In this document: piece by piece, positions 1 to 7,660 of the stretch
Position numbering within the stretch: the stretch's first letter is position 1
How the letters are laid out: the number at the start of each line of letters is the position of its first letter
Assembly (NCBI GenBank): GCA_000002445.1
Contig: CP000071.1
Location: 1,760,001 to 1,824,000, forward strand
DNA: 64,000 nt
Source of the DNA: Trypanosoma brucei
Lineage: Eukaryota
Direction: 5' to 3'
The notes under the pieces: generated by a model
The model's input: only the letters and a program-made list of their open reading frames with translations
Databases searched by the model: none
Told to the model about the DNA's origin: nothing
Translations under genes and position numbers: made by a program

Positions 1-256
1 TTGGTATTTTATTGTCTCCTCTTCTGTTTCACCTGTAACCAACTCCGGCACTGTCGTCGTTTTTTTTCTCCATCTCTGTATATGTGAGAGTGCCCACTGC
101 ATTTCACTCCTCGATTTTTTCTTTTTTGTTTTATTTCCCTCCATTTGCATTTTCCTCGTTCCGGACTGTTGTTGTTCACTCTCCGACAATTTGTTGAAAT
201 ACAACGTGAGGGGGTTCTCATTGCCGTCACCCCTATTGTATGCTACTACGAGCTTC

Positions 257-1366
257 ATGGGTATGGGTCTCACCGGGATATGCCTCGCACTATTGGTTGC
301 AGTTTTCTCCTACACGGTGAACTGGGCACACTTCGACTTTAGTCTCGAGAGTAAGAGCCCGCATAACAGCGGCTGTTTGGAAAAGCCGCTTTGTGATGGC
401 CAGGTTAGTTTTATGGGGAGAGTTAAATGCCAGCTCTTCACCTACCCCGTCGATGTGGATAGACACGACTACAAGCGTGACGTGATGGGGAGGTTGGCAA
501 GGCTCTTGCAAAAGGGTCTTAAAGGACAACCGCATGTGGTTGAGGGTGTAAAGGGAGATATCGCGGTCAAACTAGCAAATCCGGGGAGGCCTTTAGTGTT
601 ACACTTCGCGGGTGACAATGGGGTGGGGAAAACGACGCTTGCGCAACTCATATCCCTTGCTCTCGCCTTTCGCTGCCGTGACATGTCGTGCCTGGTGGGT
701 GATACCTCCCTTGTGCTTTCCGGAGTAAGCTACGACGGTTACTCAGTGACAGACTTCCGCAGCGATGTGGTGCAGAAAATTGTGGAACACGCCAAGCGGT
801 ATCCACGAAACGGTGTTGTTATAGTCAACGACTTGAATGGCTTGCATCCGGATCTGGTGCGCGTTCTCCTTCCGCTATTCGGTAGGGCAACGACATTCCC
901 CGAGGCCTCTGACGCGCCACTCAACTACTTGACGGTGATAATAACAACAGACTTTGGTCGCCAAGGGCGAACACGGGGGAAGAGCTTATCAGATATGCGA
1001 CGTATCGTAGAAAGTGATTTTAAGAGTCTCTACTCGCAACTTTCTTCGTCTATGATACAAACCTATCCTTTCCTACCAGCGTCGTTGTCGACTGCGAGGG
1101 AAATAGTCCGAGCAACCGTCGATGGGTACCGCTGTGATAGTCGGCACGGGATTGGCAAACTGGATGTTGATGATGAGGTAGTTGAGTGGTTTATTGATTT
1201 GGTGAAGGACGATTTACCAGCGGAAAATGGACGTTGTGTTTCCAAAGCCGTGGTTGGAGTCGTTGGGCCCGCCGTGTTGCAACATCTCTCCAGCAGGTTA
1301 CCGAGTCTTGCCTCGCTGCGTGTGGTGCTTGATAGCGACGGCTCAGTTGCCGTGCGCGAGAACTAA
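257..1366 (+). CDS. Torsin-like AAA+ family protein. It has an N-terminal signal peptide or anchor, an intact Walker A (GDNGVGKTT) and a degenerate Walker B.
   Basis: The ORF track starts this ORF at a TTG (191); the first ATG is at 257. The N-terminus MGMGLTGICLALLVAVFSYTV is hydrophobic. The block NPGRPLVLHFAGDNGVGKTTLAQLI matches torsin NPKKPLTLSLHGWAGTGKN. VVIVNDLNGLHPDLVRVLLPLF aligns to torsin [22 protein letters not shown]. Length is 369 aa, torsin-like. Confidence 0.5.
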   Translation: MGMGLTGICLALLVAVFSYTVNWAHFDFSLESKSPHNSGCLEKPLCDGQVSFMGRVKCQLFTYPVDVDRHDYKRDVMGRLARLLQKGLKGQPHVVEGVKGDIAVKLANPGRPLVLHFAGDNGVGKTTLAQLISLALAFRCRDMSCLVGDTSLVLSGVSYDGYSVTDFRSDVVQKIVEHAKRYPRNGVVIVNDLNGLHPDLVRVLLPLFGRATTFPEASDAPLNYLTVIITTDFGRQGRTRGKSLSDMRRIVESDFKSLYSQLSSSMIQTYPFLPASLSTAREIVRATVDGYRCDSRHGIGKLDVDDEVVEWFIDLVKDDLPAENGRCVSKAVVGVVGPAVLQHLSSRLPSLASLRVVLDSDGSVAVREN

Positions 1367-1510
1367 TGGTCACACTATTTGGGGGCCTGGTCCCCGTTCG
1401 CCATCTCTCACGCAAGTATACTTGAGTCGTTTAGTGTGTGCCCGTTTTTTCACAGACTGGGGAAATGCACACTTCCATGGAGAGAACGTACACACGTGTG
1501 CACATTCGTC

Positions 1511-1645
1511 CGTTCTTATCCTACCATTCTTGTGGAGCGTTTTTGTTTTCTTTCCAGTGTTTCATCTTTCGCTGCATTTTCGTGTTCTCTTGGTCTACCA
1601 GCGCATCCAGTTCTCAACTCTATTCTATTTGAATTGTTGTTTTAG
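1511..1645 (+). promoter_or_regulatory. Polypyrimidine tract with AG dinucleotides; putative trans-splice acceptor region for RPL12
   Basis: Long C/T-rich run (ttttgttttctttccagtgtttcatctttcgctgcattttcgtgttctct...) ending in tttag, 20 nt upstream of the ATG. Confidence 0.45.
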
Positions 1646-1664
1646 AAAGGAGCCACAGCGAACC

Positions 1665-2159
1665 ATGCCTCCAAAGTTTGACCCCAATCAGGAGATCACA
1701 GTCGTCGTCCGTGCTGTGGGTGGTGAGGTGCCTGCAACGGCGTCACTCGCCCCCAAGGTTGGTCCACTCGGTTTGAATGCGAAAAAGATCGGTGAGGACA
1801 TCGCCAAATCCACGAAGGACTGGAAGGGTCTCAAGGTTACGTGTCAGCTGCGCGTAAAGAACCGTGTGGCTACCGTCGTCGTCACGCCATCTGTCGCCTC
1901 AAGGCTGATCCGTGCGCTGAAGGAGCCACCGCGCGATCGCAAGAAGGTGAAGAACATTAAGCATGACGGTAACATCGCCTTCTCTGAGATTCTGAAGATT
2001 GCGAAGGAGTCCGCGCCGAACTCTATGGGCGCCAGCATGAAATCTGTGGTGATGGAGGTACTTGGCACTGCCGTTTCCATCGGATGTACCATCGACGGTG
2101 AGCACCCGCGCGCGATTCAGGAGAAGGTTCAGGAAGGTAAGCTGAAGGTCCCCAACTAA
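1665..2159 (+). CDS. RPL12: 60S ribosomal protein L12 (uL11)
   Basis: MPPKFDPNQEITVVVRAVGGEVPATASLAPKVGPLGLNAKKIGEDIAK...; canonical L12/L11 sequence, 164 aa. The internal ATG lies inside a longer ORF-track ORF. Confidence 0.95.
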   Translation: MPPKFDPNQEITVVVRAVGGEVPATASLAPKVGPLGLNAKKIGEDIAKSTKDWKGLKVTCQLRVKNRVATVVVTPSVASRLIRALKEPPRDRKKVKNIKHDGNIAFSEILKIAKESAPNSMGASMKSVVMEVLGTAVSIGCTIDGEHPRAIQEKVQEGKLKVPN

Positions 2160-2456
2160 ACTTTGGTGGGTTCCTTTTTTTTCCTTTTGTTATTTATTTA
2201 GTTTTGTTTTTAACCATCCAATTGTTAATATCTAAAAGGAAAGGGGGGTGGCCGGCCCTCCCACAAGCCACCCATGCGGGTATCAGCTCTCTTTCTCAAG
2301 TGCATAACTGATGCGTCTCTTTTTGCAACCCTCTCCGTTCGCCTGCTCATTTTTTCTTTTACCTTTTCTTTATCCTCACATCGCTGAATCGCGTGCTGAA
2401 CAACACTACCAAATACATTAGAACACACAATGGGGACCATCAGCCGCCCTGGAGGG

Positions 2457-2534
2457 ATGCGGCCTAAGTGGCACAAGAAGCGCATAAAGCGCTTAAAGCG
2501 CCGACGACGACGCATGCGCCAGCGCTCCAAGTAA
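2457..2534 (+). CDS. RPL41: 60S ribosomal protein L41 (eL41), copy 1, 25 aa MRPKWHKKRIKRLKRRRRRMRQRSK
   Basis: Exact L41-type Arg/Lys-rich 25-mer. An in-frame upstream ATG at 2430 would add MGTISRPGG. Confidence 0.85.
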   Translation: MRPKWHKKRIKRLKRRRRRMRQRSK

Positions 2535-3003
2535 GCGCCCTGATGCATCGGTGAACATTCCTCGTGGTGCCGTTCAGTGCTCCTTTTTTGCGAGTTTCGC
2601 ACGCCGAACTCCCGATCAACGAAACGCATGCACATGTGCGTGCAACCTATTTATGGGTACGGAAACAAAGCATTTGATGTCTTCCCCCCTTTTTTCGTCG
2701 TCTAGTTACCTTTCCATTTTTCTACTTCTAGAGTGGAAACAAGTGTCAATGTTTTCTTCCCCTTTGGAGGTATGCCTGTGCTATAATGTTCCTTTCTTAT
2801 ATTATTGTCTTGGCCCTCACTCCTTTCTAACTGCTGTGGGCGACAGTCATACGCGCCCGGTGTTTGACTGCCGTCTGCTCACTTCAACCAACCTCCTGTT
2901 AACGCTTTCTCTTTTTTTTCTTTTGCGCTGCCTTTGTTTGTAACGTCTAAAACTACCAAATACATTAGAACACACAATGGGGACCATCAGCCGCCCTGGA
3001 GGG

Positions 3004-3081
3004 ATGCGGCCCAAGTGGCACAAGAAGCGCATAAAGCGCTTAAAGCGACGACGACGACGCATGCGCCAGCGCTCCAAGTAA
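3004..3081 (+). CDS. RPL41: 60S ribosomal protein L41, copy 2
   Basis: Identical peptide; upstream in-frame ATG at 2977. Confidence 0.85.
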   Translation: MRPKWHKKRIKRLKRRRRRMRQRSK

Positions 3082-3519
3082 GTGGACAGTCGAACCGCTG
3101 AACGATCCCGCGGTCGCGCGAATCAGTGTCGCTCACTTGTCTTGTCGCGCATGGATTCGTGGCAGGGGAACAACCCAAGTGTGTATTCACCCTTATGATT
3201 TGTTCCTTTTTTTTTTCTTCTGTTTTTGATACGCCGAGGAGCGGCCCTTTTTTCCCGTGTGGTTTGTTCTTTTGTTAGCGCTCTCCTTCAATACTGCGTG
3301 GTGTTCTGTTCACCGTACGGCAGTAAACCATCTCGGGGGCGGGGGGGGGGGTTCCCTTTTCCAAGGCTCACCTCACCAGAAGCCCGTGACAGTTTTTCTT
3401 ACTCTCTGCATCTTTCTTATCGACGGACGGCTCCCCATTGCTTTTTCTTTGCTTCCTTGCTTTCTTTATTTACTCTAGTCAGAAGGTGAAGGATGGGGAC
3501 CATCAGCCGCCCTGGAGGG

Positions 3520-3597
3520 ATGCGGCCCAAGTGGCACAAGAAGCGCATAAAGCGCTTAAAGCGCCGACGACGACGCATGCGCCAGCGCTCCAAGTAA
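3520..3597 (+). CDS. RPL41: 60S ribosomal protein L41, copy 3
   Basis: Identical peptide; upstream in-frame ATG at 3493. Confidence 0.85.
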   Translation: MRPKWHKKRIKRLKRRRRRMRQRSK

Positions 3598-4175
3598 GCG
3601 CCCTGATGCATCGAAAAGAGGTGCAATAAAGCGCGCTGGCGGCCGCCTCGGCGCCCCGTTTTGTCCGATACCTGGTTCGTACTGAGCCATCTCGCGCCTT
3701 AATATTTTTCTTTTGTTCTGGGAAGGCGTCTTAGGAGGGCATCCGATTGTACCGTTTCAGTGTTTTTGGCTGCTGCTTCTCCTCTACTACTATGTTTTGT
3801 CTCCTTCAGTTTTTTCCCTCTCATTCTTTGCCTCCCTTTTTGCAGGCTCCTGCAATTGGAATGGCTACGAGGTTTTGGAAGAAGGTCAACTGCCAGAGGA
3901 TGGGGGAAGAAGTCTAAAAGTAATCAGGGGAAAAGACAGCAGCAAAAAAAACATAACGGAATGTCTGGGTGAGTTGAGGCCCCTCTCGGGTGCCCGCCAA
4001 CGTCACTCTCTGGCTGTCTGCTTTTTTTTTTGTTTCGATTCCTCGCCTACAATGTGGACGGTAAGGGCCGCGTGCTTTCTTATTTTTCTACACAACTCAT
4101 CTGTGCACCTTCACCACCATTTCTCTTTCTTCTGCTTTCCCCTGTAATGATCTCGCTTCTGAAAGGCCGTAACTA

Positions 4176-4895
4176 ATGCACCCGCGATTGTCGGGGCAGG
4201 GCGTGTTTCCTCGCTATGGTGGCGGGTGGATGCATCAGTTCGGTCACGTGTACGCCCTTCAGCAGGAGCTGCTCAACGCTGAAGCAAACAACTGGTTCCG
4301 TGCGATGGAGTTGTGGCACACCGCTCGACACGAAGGGGTGGCAATGAATGTCTCCCACTACACAAACATCCTTCGCCAGTGTGTGCCTCCGACTGCATGG
4401 GAGGCCTCATTGATGGTATTGAAGCAAATGAGGCGGGAGAACATCCGACCAGATGTCGTTGGTGTCGGTTGCGCTCTTGCAGCCTGTGCTGACGCCAACC
4501 GCAGTGAGGAAGTGGAGAAAGTGTTTAGTTGCTTTAGCGGCAAGCTAAAGTTGGATAGTATTTGTTACCTTGCGCTCATTAAAGCCAAGATGTCCCGTGG
4601 AGGGTACGCTGAGGCTCTGGCTGTTGGAAGAGAACAAGACGCTGATGGGGTGCCTTTTCTTCCACACACGTATACGCACTTACTCGAAGCGGCGGAGGTG
4701 GCTGACGATGGTGAGATGGCATTGGAATTGGCGAGGCGGATGAGCAGCGAGCAGTGGCCGGTGTCCGATCGGGGACGGGAGGCACTCAAAAAATTGAGCA
4801 CCAGACACCATTGGGAGGAAGTGGCGGAGTACAAACAGTTTGTGGCAGTTGAGGATCATAAGTTATCGCTGCCCCCCACTTTACCTCGTGGTTGA
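4176..4895 (+). CDS. Small pentatricopeptide-repeat (PPR)-like protein, probably mitochondrial
   Basis: Tandem ~35-aa helical repeats with a PPR-like pattern (NVSHYTNILRQCVPPTAWEASLMVLKQMRRENIRPD; VVGVGCALAACADANRSEEVEKVFSCFSGKLKLD; SICYLALIKAKMSRGGYAEALAV). Confidence 0.5.
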   Translation: MHPRLSGQGVFPRYGGGWMHQFGHVYALQQELLNAEANNWFRAMELWHTARHEGVAMNVSHYTNILRQCVPPTAWEASLMVLKQMRRENIRPDVVGVGCALAACADANRSEEVEKVFSCFSGKLKLDSICYLALIKAKMSRGGYAEALAVGREQDADGVPFLPHTYTHLLEAAEVADDGEMALELARRMSSEQWPVSDRGREALKKLSTRHHWEEVAEYKQFVAVEDHKLSLPPTLPRG

Positions 4896-5191
4896 CATTT
4901 CGATGGGCAGCGAGGGATGGAGGAGGGGGGAACAGCAGCGAAATATGCTCTCAGCGCTGTTGTTCGTGTTCGAATGGAAAAATTTAGTCAGCATCATGGG
5001 GCAGCGGTCCTTTTGTTTGCTCTTCACTGGCGCGAGCATTGTCCTAGGTTTACGTCCATGATATTTTTAAATGTCCCTTCACTTTACTTCATGTAATTGC
5101 CTTTGTTTTTGTTTTTGTACGCAAACGAATATGCCAAAAGGAAATAGAGATAGGGTGGAGGGACTGAAGGAACGCGGCATCCCCCAATAAT

Positions 5192-5953
5192 ATGCCTCCT
5201 AAGAGACCACCCCGCGCGCGTCGCACAAAAGAGAGTGCGAAGGCCGTAATATCACCCCAAGAAAAGCCACTGACGTCGTCATCTTCTGGCGAAGCGTTGG
5301 GTGGTAGTGGTAATGAAGTAAAAAGAACAAATGAGACACCGGTTGCTAGAGTCGCGCGCCCACTGAACAGTCCGTCCGTTCGTGCAGTGAGTGAAAAAGC
5401 GCCGAGCCCAACGGGCTTCGGACCGTGCCATGTAATTGGTGTCCTTTTAGCTGTTGTACTCACGTGTGTTTGGTCCATTTTCCCCCCGTGGGATGCGACC
5501 GATGCTCCTCCTTGCCACTGTTTCCCAGCGGGAGGTGAAGTACAACAGGCCATTGCGAGCAGGATGTTTGGTGTCACTGGCATTCATCTTCGGGGTGCCG
5601 GCCACTCCGCCGTAGAGGAGAGTTTAAGGGGGCTATCATCGTGCGGGAAGCTGTACACACTAGAAAACCAGTTTGACGGCGTTGGTTCGTTTATGCAACG
5701 TTTGCAGCATGATGCCAAAGGGACGCGTTGTGTTGTTTGGTTGGTTAAGGATCTCTCAGTTGTAAAGCATGTTGACAACGCGTTGAAGGAGCTTCTAGAG
5801 GATAATACACTTCGCGGGAATCGTATTCTCCCCGATGGGGCGCGTGGCCTGTTTATCGTGTTGTCCAATCAGAGCCGAGAGGAAATAAAAGGGTTGCTGC
5901 CTCACCGTGTTGTTCACCAGTTCCGCACAATCAACCTTCCGGCGAAGAAATGA
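5192..5953 (+). CDS. Hypothetical type-II membrane protein with a degenerate torsin/AAA+-like luminal domain (LAP1/LULL1-like architecture)
   Basis: Basic Ser/Pro-rich N-terminal 80 aa, then a TM helix (HVIGVLLAVVLTCVWSIF). The next domain has degenerate P-loop (IHLRGAGHSAVEES), Walker-B-like (CVVWLVKDLSVVKHVDNALKELLED) and sensor-1-like (GLFIVLSNQSR) blocks. FMQRLQHDAKG matches torsin YQDQLQKWIRG. Confidence 0.45.
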   Translation: MPPKRPPRARRTKESAKAVISPQEKPLTSSSSGEALGGSGNEVKRTNETPVARVARPLNSPSVRAVSEKAPSPTGFGPCHVIGVLLAVVLTCVWSIFPPWDATDAPPCHCFPAGGEVQQAIASRMFGVTGIHLRGAGHSAVEESLRGLSSCGKLYTLENQFDGVGSFMQRLQHDAKGTRCVVWLVKDLSVVKHVDNALKELLEDNTLRGNRILPDGARGLFIVLSNQSREEIKGLLPHRVVHQFRTINLPAKK

Positions 5954-6445: not shown

Positions 6446-7660
6446 ATGTTCCGCACTGTTCCTCGTTATGTTAGTTCAATGCTGCGGGAAGCGGCGGCTG
6501 CACAACTCGCAGCAATCAAGGAGGCTGGTACATACAAGGTGGAGCGAGTTATTACATCCAAGCAAAGCTCCACCATCAATGTCTCGACCGCTGCTACTCC
6601 GGTTTTGAACTTCTGTGCGAATAATTATCTTGGCCTTGCGGACCATCCGGAGGTAATCCAGGCAGCGAAGGATGCGTTGGATTCGCACGGATACGGTTTG
6701 GCGTCGGTGCGCTTCATCTGCGGTACCACAGATATCCACAAAAAGTTGGAGCAGACGATGACTGAGTTTTTGGGGATGGAAGACACCATTCTTTACCCAA
6801 GCTGTTTCGATGCAAATGCCGGTGTGTTTGAGGCACTTCTTACTTCAGAAGATGCGATCATCTCAGATGCACTGAACCACGCGAGCATCATTGACGGCGT
6901 ACGACTTTGCAAGGCGGAGCGCCACCGCTATGCGCACCTGGATATGAAGGAACTTGAAACTGCGCTACAAAAGACTCAGCATAATCGCATTCGCCTCATT
7001 GTCACAGATGGTGTCTTCTCGATGGACGGTGACGTTGCGCCGCTTGACAAAATTGTTCAGCTTGCCGAAAAATACAACGCAAACGTAATGGTTGATGATT
7101 CTCATGCCAGTGGCTTCATGGGTCCGGGAGGTCGCGGCACCCCGGCCCTGTTTGGTGTTATCGACAAGGTAGACATCCTGAACACGACACTTGGCAAAGC
7201 CCTTGGTGGTGCCAGTGGTGGTCTTTCATCAGGTTGCAAAGAAATCGTCGATCTTCAGCGTCAAAAGGGTCGGCCATATCTCTTCTCCAACACCATCGCT
7301 CCTGCAGCTGTGGGTGGTACGCTCAAGGTGATGGAGCTGTTGCAAACCACCTCGAGTGCGCGGAAGCAGCTGCAAGATAACACACATCTGTTTCGTACTG
7401 AAATGAAGAAAGCCGGCTTCACACTCAGCGGGCACGAGGAATGTCCCATTGCTCCAGTTATGCTATACGAAGCACGTATTGCTGCTGAATTCGCTGCTAA
7501 GATGATGGCTGAAGGAATTTATGTAACAGCGTTCAGCTACCCTGTAGTGCCCAAGGGACAGGCTCGTATTCGAGTGCAACTCTCTGCTGCTCACACTACA
7601 GAAGACGTGAAGCTTGCCGTTGATGCTTTTACAAAAATCAAGAAAGAACTTAACGTATAG
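6446..7660 (+). CDS. KBL: 2-amino-3-ketobutyrate CoA ligase (glycine C-acetyltransferase), PLP-dependent, mitochondrial-type N-terminus
   Basis: NFCANNYLGLADHPEVIQAAKDALDSHGYGLASVRFICGTTDIHKKLE...; class-II aminotransferase/KBL family. The Schiff-base Lys falls in the expected FSMDGD..(K) region. 404 aa. Confidence 0.93.
   Translation: MFRTVPRYVSSMLREAAAAQLAAIKEAGTYKVERVITSKQSSTINVSTAATPVLNFCANNYLGLADHPEVIQAAKDALDSHGYGLASVRFICGTTDIHKKLEQTMTEFLGMEDTILYPSCFDANAGVFEALLTSEDAIISDALNHASIIDGVRLCKAERHRYAHLDMKELETALQKTQHNRIRLIVTDGVFSMDGDVAPLDKIVQLAEKYNANVMVDDSHASGFMGPGGRGTPALFGVIDKVDILNTTLGKALGGASGGLSSGCKEIVDLQRQKGRPYLFSNTIAPAAVGGTLKVMELLQTTSSARKQLQDNTHLFRTEMKKAGFTLSGHEECPIAPVMLYEARIAAEFAAKMMAEGIYVTAFSYPVVPKGQARIRVQLSAAHTTEDVKLAVDAFTKIKKELNV

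Follow-up and report, generated by a model that had tools for sequence, protein, structure and literature searches.

In a 64,000-nucleotide stretch of Trypanosoma brucei chromosome 8 (contig CP000071.1, positions 1,760,001 to 1,824,000, hereafter called the window), two open reading frames (ORFs) about 5 kb apart, gene 1 and gene 2, encode proteins with AAA+-type domains that are predicted to face the endoplasmic reticulum (ER) lumen. From our sequence, profile and structure comparisons, we conclude that they are best explained as two AAA+-fold proteins that have long been separate, both located in the lumen of the ER and the nuclear envelope (NE), rather than as products of a duplication. Gene 1, a luminal AAA+ protein of these compartments, has already been described in brief. 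The most fitting name for it is ClpB-NBD2-like, with some traits of torsins, namely its compartment, the missing arginine finger, the shortness of its pore-loop region, and a PFLP motif. Gene 2 belongs to a conserved, previously uncharacterised kinetoplastid family of membrane-anchored pseudo-AAA+ proteins. The label "torsin family", which a sequence-only reading of the window had given to both, fits gene 1 loosely and gene 2 not at all. The two may belong to a kinetoplastid machine of the ER/NE lumen, in which this type II membrane protein family would donate an invariant arginine (Arg239) to the finger-less gene 1 product and/or its paralogue ERIKA, a possibility that we consider real but on balance doubtful.

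The TrypTag tagging primers for Tb927.8.6020 match window positions 178–256 and 1287–1363 exactly, and gene 1 is therefore Tb927.8.6020. The PPR gene between the two (Tb927.8.6040) and Tb927.8.6060 are both named in papers, so gene 2 is presumably Tb927.8.6050; Tb927.8.6040 is mentioned in PMC6242908, the title of which refers to a 27 kDa PPR protein. The coordinates of all features are collected in Table 1.

Gene 1, a ClpB-NBD2-like ATPase

The sequence-only reading had taken the two genes for torsin-family paralogues. For gene 1, the comparisons point elsewhere within the AAA+ proteins. Searched against the PDB, the gene 1 family profile found ClpB NBD2 as its best match (E 1e-10), together with the NBD2 of ClpA and ClpC, and no torsin at E<=0.01. 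The same profile scored 44.6 bits against ClpB and 7.5 bits against human torsinA, a query validated by its identity to 6OIF over residues 51–332. The AlphaFold2 (AF2) model of gene 1, with an overall predicted local distance difference test score (pLDDT) of 86.9, retrieved solely ClpB, Skd3, ClpC and ClpA D2 domains among its top 50 Foldseek matches (E 1e-13, TM-scores of about 0.64–0.72), with no torsin among these 50. The Pfam family Torsin (PF06309) was the commonest match in the gene 1 family, found at E<=0.01 in 12 of 25 sequences with a best value of 3.5e-6; gene 1 itself scored 18.1 bits, below the gathering threshold of 27.

Gene 1 shares large and small subdomains, a GKT Walker A, a pre-sensor-1 hairpin and a sensor-2 arginine with the NBD2 of ClpB, Hsp104, Skd3, ClpA and ClpC, which provide its best profile and structure matches, and thereby has the features of the Clp/Hsp100 NBD2-type (HCLR) fold. 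It differs from these proteins in that it consists of one module directed into the secretory pathway, with a degenerate in place of a canonical (DE) Walker B, an Asp at sensor 1, and neither a trans-acting arginine finger nor a GYVG pore loop. Walker A reads GDNGVGKT without exception in 25 orthologues, and because of this invariance gene 1 is predicted almost certainly to bind ATP. In the Walker B strand both canonical acidic residues are altered (D to N and E to D), such that the catalytic Glu is absent in Trypanosoma. Trypanosoma and Bodo have the residue pair N-D at this position, Leishmaniinae N-E, ERIKA D-D, and a distant euglenozoan-type relative (P0056) D-E. A kept Walker A, a missing catalytic Walker B Glu and an N-terminal signal had all been read from the sequence before, and all three hold.

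The column of the arginine finger was located in a MAFFT alignment with the validated Thermus thermophilus ClpB NBD2 sequence, and its assignment is therefore alignment-based. The Arg of the ClpB motif FLNRLDEIVVF, which we take to be R747, the arginine finger of NBD2, from residue counting and its spacing to the sensor-2 GAR motif, falls on Ser265 of gene 1. This serine is kept by at least 90% of the gene 1 family, and ERIKA has Ala in the same column. At the sensor-2 position, gene 1 has an invariant Arg (Arg326) and ERIKA a His (ENGH). The pore-loop region is as short as that of torsinA and has no GYVG, and Tyr159 in the beta2-alpha2 loop is invariant. A loop of the form TDFGxxGRTxGK (residues 231–243, window 947–985) directly follows the sensor-1 strand and is invariant in gene 1 and ERIKA. 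It has no ClpB counterpart and is partially similar to RSGKQREDIK of torsinA; it could be an alternative trans-acting element.

Like metazoan torsins, gene 1 is a single-module AAA+ protein with an ER signal and ER/NE localisation that is related to ClpB NBD2. Both are without a finger Arg and have a short pore-loop region without the ClpB insertion, and PFLP follows beta5. Torsins have a non-canonical Walker A of the form GxxxxGKN and no conserved aromatic pore loops (PMC7175109), and they are without an arginine finger (PMC7175109, PMC4358337). In our alignment, the Arg of torsinA IDRNL was placed opposite the ClpB finger, which we took as alignment ambiguity in view of this literature. Gene 1 differs from torsins in its canonical GKT (GKN in torsins), in its N-D Walker B (D-E in torsins), in the sensor-2 Arg that it retains where torsin has a Cys-containing motif, and in a small domain that is larger and ClpB-like, with beta-strands.

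The AF2 model extends a helix over residues 5–31, across the hydrophobic N-terminus. Downstream of it, Cys40, Cys46 and Cys58 are invariant in the 25-sequence alignment, which suggests luminal disulfides. N-terminally tagged gene 1 was localised by TrypTag to the ER, the NE and the flagellar-pocket region, and its orientation is predicted to be luminal. Orthologues occur across kinetoplastids including Bodo saltans, beside a longer paralogous family (P0033–P0052). Two kinetoplastid "torsin" subfamilies were described in 2024, one without a KDEL-like tail and the other, ERIKA, with a C-terminal -DL (PMC10903960). Nearly all members of our long family end in -DL; this family is thus ERIKA, and gene 1 is the other subfamily. 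That study reports an intact ATPase site, whereas we find non-canonical residues at Walker B, at sensor 1 and in the finger column alike. Papers on nuclear-envelope budding either mentioned torsins in their reference lists only or contained no information on those of kinetoplastids.

Gene 2, a family of membrane-anchored pseudo-AAA+ proteins

A word-indexed search found six relatives of gene 2 (five from Trypanosoma species and one Logan sequence), and an exhaustive profile search extended the family to about 40 representatives, of which those with a species name are from Trypanosoma, Phytomonas and Bodo saltans. When the family profile was run through a third word-indexed protein search, it yielded nothing new and no LAP1-like proteins. 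Among the 39 matches aligned or read, 36 share one layout, the others being short fragments: a variable, usually basic low-complexity N-terminus, one hydrophobic helix, and a C-terminal domain that ends in LPHRVVH. By the positive-inside rule, the basic tail is predicted to be cytoplasmic or nucleoplasmic, and the conserved family cysteines (PCxC, C151 and C180) fit a luminal location of the remainder. Two members (P0084 and P0093) carry a longer region resembling leucine-rich repeats (LRR) in place of the basic tail. Such LRR-like N-termini suggest diversification of these proteins on their cytoplasmic side.

Gene 2 has no P-loop. The beta1-alpha1 junction reads RGAGHS in T. brucei and varies among orthologues, and at the Walker B position family members have K-D, E-D or T-T. 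Among 30 diverse members, Lys199 and Arg239 are the only invariant residues, the latter within LPHRVVH and found in every member aligned. R229 (SRE) was considered as an alternative finger and rejected, as several members have K or L there.

No Pfam or PDB sequence match was found for gene 2, and its fold is predicted from an AF2 model computed from a 7-sequence alignment. The model shows a five-strand alpha/beta domain over residues 115–250 with a pLDDT of about 90, the confident part comprising some 140 residues. A hairpin at residues 206–211, at the pre-sensor-1 position, precedes the fourth strand, and the chain ends directly after beta5. In Foldseek, every match of this domain was an AAA+ ATPase or a related ASCE helicase, at weak E-values (best 2e-4), and the structural matches of the model are AAA+ large subdomains. 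Support independent of the model came from hhalign in Viterbi mode, in which the gene 2 family matched a mixed profile of gene 1, ERIKA, their relatives, torsinA and ClpB with a score of 40.9 (probability 74%, E 2.9e-5). In 60 controls shuffled in 8-column blocks, the score was 17.1 +/- 2.5 with a maximum of 23.2; a null based on full column shuffling was erratic (standard deviation 22, one value of 135) and was set aside. The match lies in the register predicted by the model, from the Walker-B strand (beta3) via the hairpin to the sensor-1 strand (beta4), and it shows no specificity for gene 1 or ERIKA. According to the modelled secondary structure, Arg239 would occupy the position where AAA+ arginine fingers sit. 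The luminal part is predicted to be a stripped-down AAA+ large subdomain, unable to bind nucleotide. That gene 2 is without Walker A and membrane-anchored had also been proposed from the sequence, and both statements stand, the AAA+ assignment at the level of the fold. The KELLEDNTLRG segment (residues 191–213, window 5762–5830) gave recurrent marginal matches to uL23 (E 0.1–1), which we judged to be due to chance.

Gene order and relationship of the two genes

Both ORFs and the RPL12, RPL41 and PPR genes between them were borne out by the ORFs and the sequence in the order reported earlier (Table 1). These intervening genes lie outside the system discussed here. RPL12 and the RPL41 copies were read from the sequence, and the genes syntenic to RPL12 have Ribosomal_L11 Pfam matches. 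The segment upstream of RPL41 copies 1 and 2 is identical (ACTACCAAATACATTAGAACACACA; window 2401–2429 and 2948–2976) and the 5' flank of copy 3 differs, so that the array consists of non-uniform repeat units.

Table 1. Features of the two genes and their neighbourhood; positions are those of the window
Feature	Positions	Strand	Description
Gene 1 (Tb927.8.6020)	257..1366	+	369 aa; AAA+ ATPase of the ER and nuclear envelope, ClpB-NBD2/torsin-like, with large and small subdomains
Gene 1 N-terminal hydrophobic segment	263..319	+	residues 3–21; signal peptide or signal anchor; Kyte-Doolittle peak 2.04
Gene 1 Walker A	611..634	+	residues 119–126; GDNGVGKT
Gene 1 degenerate Walker B	815..832	+	residues 187–192; VVIVND (canonical hhhhDE)
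Gene 1 Ser265	1049..1051	+	column of the ClpB NBD2 arginine finger, by alignment
Gene 1 Arg326	1232..1234	+	ENGR motif; sensor-2 equivalent (ClpB GAR)
RPL12 (uL11)	1665..2159	+	intervening gene
RPL41 array	2430–2534, 2977–3081, 3493–3597	+	intervening, three copies
PPR protein (PPR27, Tb927.8.6040)	4176..4895	+	intervening; Pfam PPR_3, 2.7e-10
Gene 2 (presumably Tb927.8.6050)	5192..5953	+	253 aa; predicted type II membrane protein with nucleotide-free AAA+-like luminal domain
Gene 2 basic disordered N-terminal tail	5192..5422	+	residues 1–77; 14 K/R and 6 D/E; pLDDT <50 at residues 9–76
Gene 2 transmembrane helix	5423..5479	+	residues 78–96 (AF2 helix); hydropathy peak 2.37 at residues 79–97
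Gene 2 luminal AAA+-like alpha/beta domain	5510..5941	+	predicted; residues 107–250; five strands, hairpin 206–211; no small subdomain
Gene 2 Arg239	5906..5908	+	in LPHRVVH; candidate arginine finger, five residues before the last strand (244–248)
2-amino-3-ketobutyrate CoA ligase (KBL)	6446–7660	+	next gene after gene 2

Searches between the two families returned noise. Direct hhalign of the gene 1 and gene 2 families in default mode gave a probability of 0.1% (0.5% with 35 gene 2 sequences), and in Viterbi mode the gene 2 family scored 17.8–22.7 when compared with gene 1 orthologues by themselves or together with ERIKA, within the range of the shuffled controls (maximum 23.2); the comparison with ERIKA by itself was likewise at noise level. 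BLASTP of gene 1 against gene 2 gave E=8, a weak in-register match over the Walker-B strand. On the basis of these comparisons we reject the reading of the two genes as a pair of paralogues.

The order gene 1, RPL12, (RPL41), PPR, gene 2, KBL is kept in T. vivax and T. cruzi, and likewise in Leishmania donovani except for KBL. The corresponding locus of Bodo saltans reads gene 1, RPL12, three copies of RPL41, PPR and KBL, with a PPR–KBL gap of just 124 bp and no gene 2 there; gene 2 homologues were detected on another contig, unlinked to gene 1. The adjacency is therefore trypanosomatid synteny within a polycistron, with no regulatory meaning and no evidence of a common origin or co-regulation. 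The earlier suggestion of a duplication remnant falls in view of the Bodo saltans locus and for want of any detectable mutual relationship. The adjacency is kept in trypanosomatids and absent in Bodo saltans, and both families occur in Trypanosoma, Leishmania and Bodo.

Some loci showed further peculiarities. The Bodo saltans homologues are two adjacent genes (L005:7057-8432) of 188 and 258 aa that form a divergent "HRTVHVM" subgroup, and their strict orthology to Tb927.8.6050 is uncertain. In T. cruzi (L004:13290-20063), a block of PPR, the gene 2 orthologue (246 aa) and KBL occurs twice in tandem, which represents either a segmental duplication or an assembly artefact. No KBL lies between the L. 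donovani orthologue (ORF 17027–17926) and the next large gene (L002:15398-18728). The probable start of this orthologue is the internal Met of MAPKTRSG. The L. donovani gene call fuses the PPR and gene 2 region into one 404-aa product, with the orthologue at the syntenic position, and the Leishmania orthologue may thus be mis-annotated.

A proposed active-site complementation and its rivals

The two products have complementary defects, as the sequence-only reading had proposed, and these resemble a known pair. LAP1 has a membrane-anchored AAA+ domain that is nucleotide-free and possesses neither Walker A nor a C-terminal domain, and its strictly conserved Arg at the finger position activates the finger-less torsin (PMC4358337, PMC7175109). 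Like LAP1/LULL1 (TOR1AIP1/2), gene 2 is predicted to be a type II protein whose transmembrane helix closely precedes a luminal AAA+-like domain free of nucleotide. It likewise is without Walker A, has a degenerate Walker B, no C-terminal small domain and conserved Cys, and its invariant Arg near the C-terminus would, judged by modelled secondary structure, lie at the AAA+ finger position. Gene 1 and ERIKA are without the finger Arg, having Ser and Ala instead, and gene 2 has the invariant Arg239 right before its last strand. We take gene 1 to be a luminal ATPase of the ClpB-NBD2/torsin (HCLR) type, either soluble or anchored by its N-terminus, with a weakened Walker B and no finger of its own. 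Gene 2 would dock onto the nucleotide face of such a finger-less ATPase, either gene 1 or its paralogue ERIKA, and insert Arg239 into the active site. This docking would tether the ATPase to the membrane and turn on hydrolysis, in parallel to the activation of animal torsins by LAP1 and LULL1. Such complementation, each interaction step of which we infer, appears to be the most likely single mechanism, at a probability clearly short of even. An activator role like that of LAP1/LULL1 is plausible for gene 2, and is proposed tentatively.

Several observations weigh against complementation. No interaction, co-purification or co-localisation data on the pair were found in the literature searched. 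Localisation tagging placed gene 1 at the ER and NE, as described above, and the supplements searched gave no TrypTag or other localisation data on Tb927.8.6050. The placement of Arg239 at the finger position derives from AF2 secondary structure, computed from seven sequences, and from motif analogy. Gene 1 keeps two other invariant arginines, R238 (in GRTRGK) and R326, which might serve in a homo-oligomer, and the ERIKA site was judged intact in PMC10903960. Gene 1 also has ClpB-like features that torsins are without, namely GKT, the sensor-2 Arg, a full small domain and the invariant Tyr159. LAP1 and LULL1 are neither sequence matches nor close structural matches of gene 2: there is no detectable sequence similarity, they are absent from its top 60 structural neighbours, and the gene 2 domain comprises about 140 aa, compared with about 230 aa in LAP1/LULL1, and ends directly after beta5. 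The likeness could be convergent.

The main rival, to which we give nearly the same weight as to complementation, is that the two genes are functionally unrelated neighbours. Gene 1 would in that case be a homo-oligomeric luminal ClpB-like unfoldase or chaperone that uses its own residues for catalysis, gene 2 a pseudo-ATPase with another role, for instance as a scaffold or receptor, and their proximity plain synteny. In gene 1, the full ClpB-type small domain, Arg326, the invariant pore-loop-region residue Tyr159 and the equally invariant loop GRTRGK all fit this explanation, as does the missing adjacency in Bodo saltans. The profile of gene 2 moreover resembles gene 1 and ERIKA no better than it does ClpB-type AAA+ proteins in general, and the LRR-like N-termini of some of its relatives hint at diversified roles. 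What unrelated neighbours leave unexplained is that a nucleotide-free AAA+ domain should be most strongly conserved at an Arg in the finger position, and that the finger-column Arg should be absent from both luminal ATPase families. It is also conceivable, albeit unlikely, that the system is real and the wrong pair was highlighted, gene 2 partnering only with ERIKA or another AAA+ protein. ERIKA has Ala at the finger column, a D-D Walker B and no sensor-2 Arg (ENGH), and its ER-retention tail -DL marks it as a luminal resident, for which a membrane tether might be necessary. Phytomonas EM1 has a gene 2 member (P0064) and ERIKA (P0051) and no gene 1 orthologue among the matches listed, an absence that, being limited to those matches, is weak evidence; no ERIKA-family match from T. 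brucei was among the matches listed either.

We consider it very improbable that the AAA+ assignment of gene 2 is a modelling artefact, with another small alpha/beta fold and an unrelated structural role for Arg239. The small AF2 input alignment, the weak Foldseek E-values, the missing Pfam and PDB sequence matches and the marginal uL23 similarity all speak for an artefact, but the pLDDT of about 90 over residues 130–250 and the independent profile-profile signal in the model-predicted register argue against it. Least probable of all is the explanation of the sequence-only reading, in which torsin-family paralogues arose by local duplication and then lost complementary motifs. Both proteins do have AAA+ folds with a pre-sensor-1 hairpin, and the in-register BLASTP match and the hhalign match to the mixed HCLR profile point in the same direction. 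Against this stand the noise-level hhalign results with gene 1 orthologues, alone or plus ERIKA, and in the default runs, the Bodo saltans gene 1 neighbourhood without gene 2, and the fact that torsinA is no preferred structural neighbour of either protein.

The earlier observation is thus confirmed in part, and its interpretation is partly supported, in the functional idea. Its statement that such a system had not been described for this group holds for the gene 2 family and the two-component idea, which are absent from the literature searched, including PMC10903960 with no mention of a membrane-anchored degenerate AAA+ partner; it does not hold for the ATPases, since the same paper covers both kinetoplastid torsin subfamilies.

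Torsins have been described as the only AAA+ ATPases of the ER/NE lumen, with cofactors in all metazoans (PMC7175109). Even if the pairing is false, gene 2 still defines a conserved kinetoplastid family of membrane-anchored pseudo-AAA+ proteins, and the greater closeness of gene 1 to ClpB NBD2 than to torsin qualifies the published label "kinetoplastid torsin". If the pairing is true, trypanosomes would offer a genetically tractable, evolutionarily distant system for the study of such machines at the nuclear envelope, and the design of an ATPase with a pseudo-ATPase activator, thought to be a metazoan speciality, would be far older or would have evolved twice.

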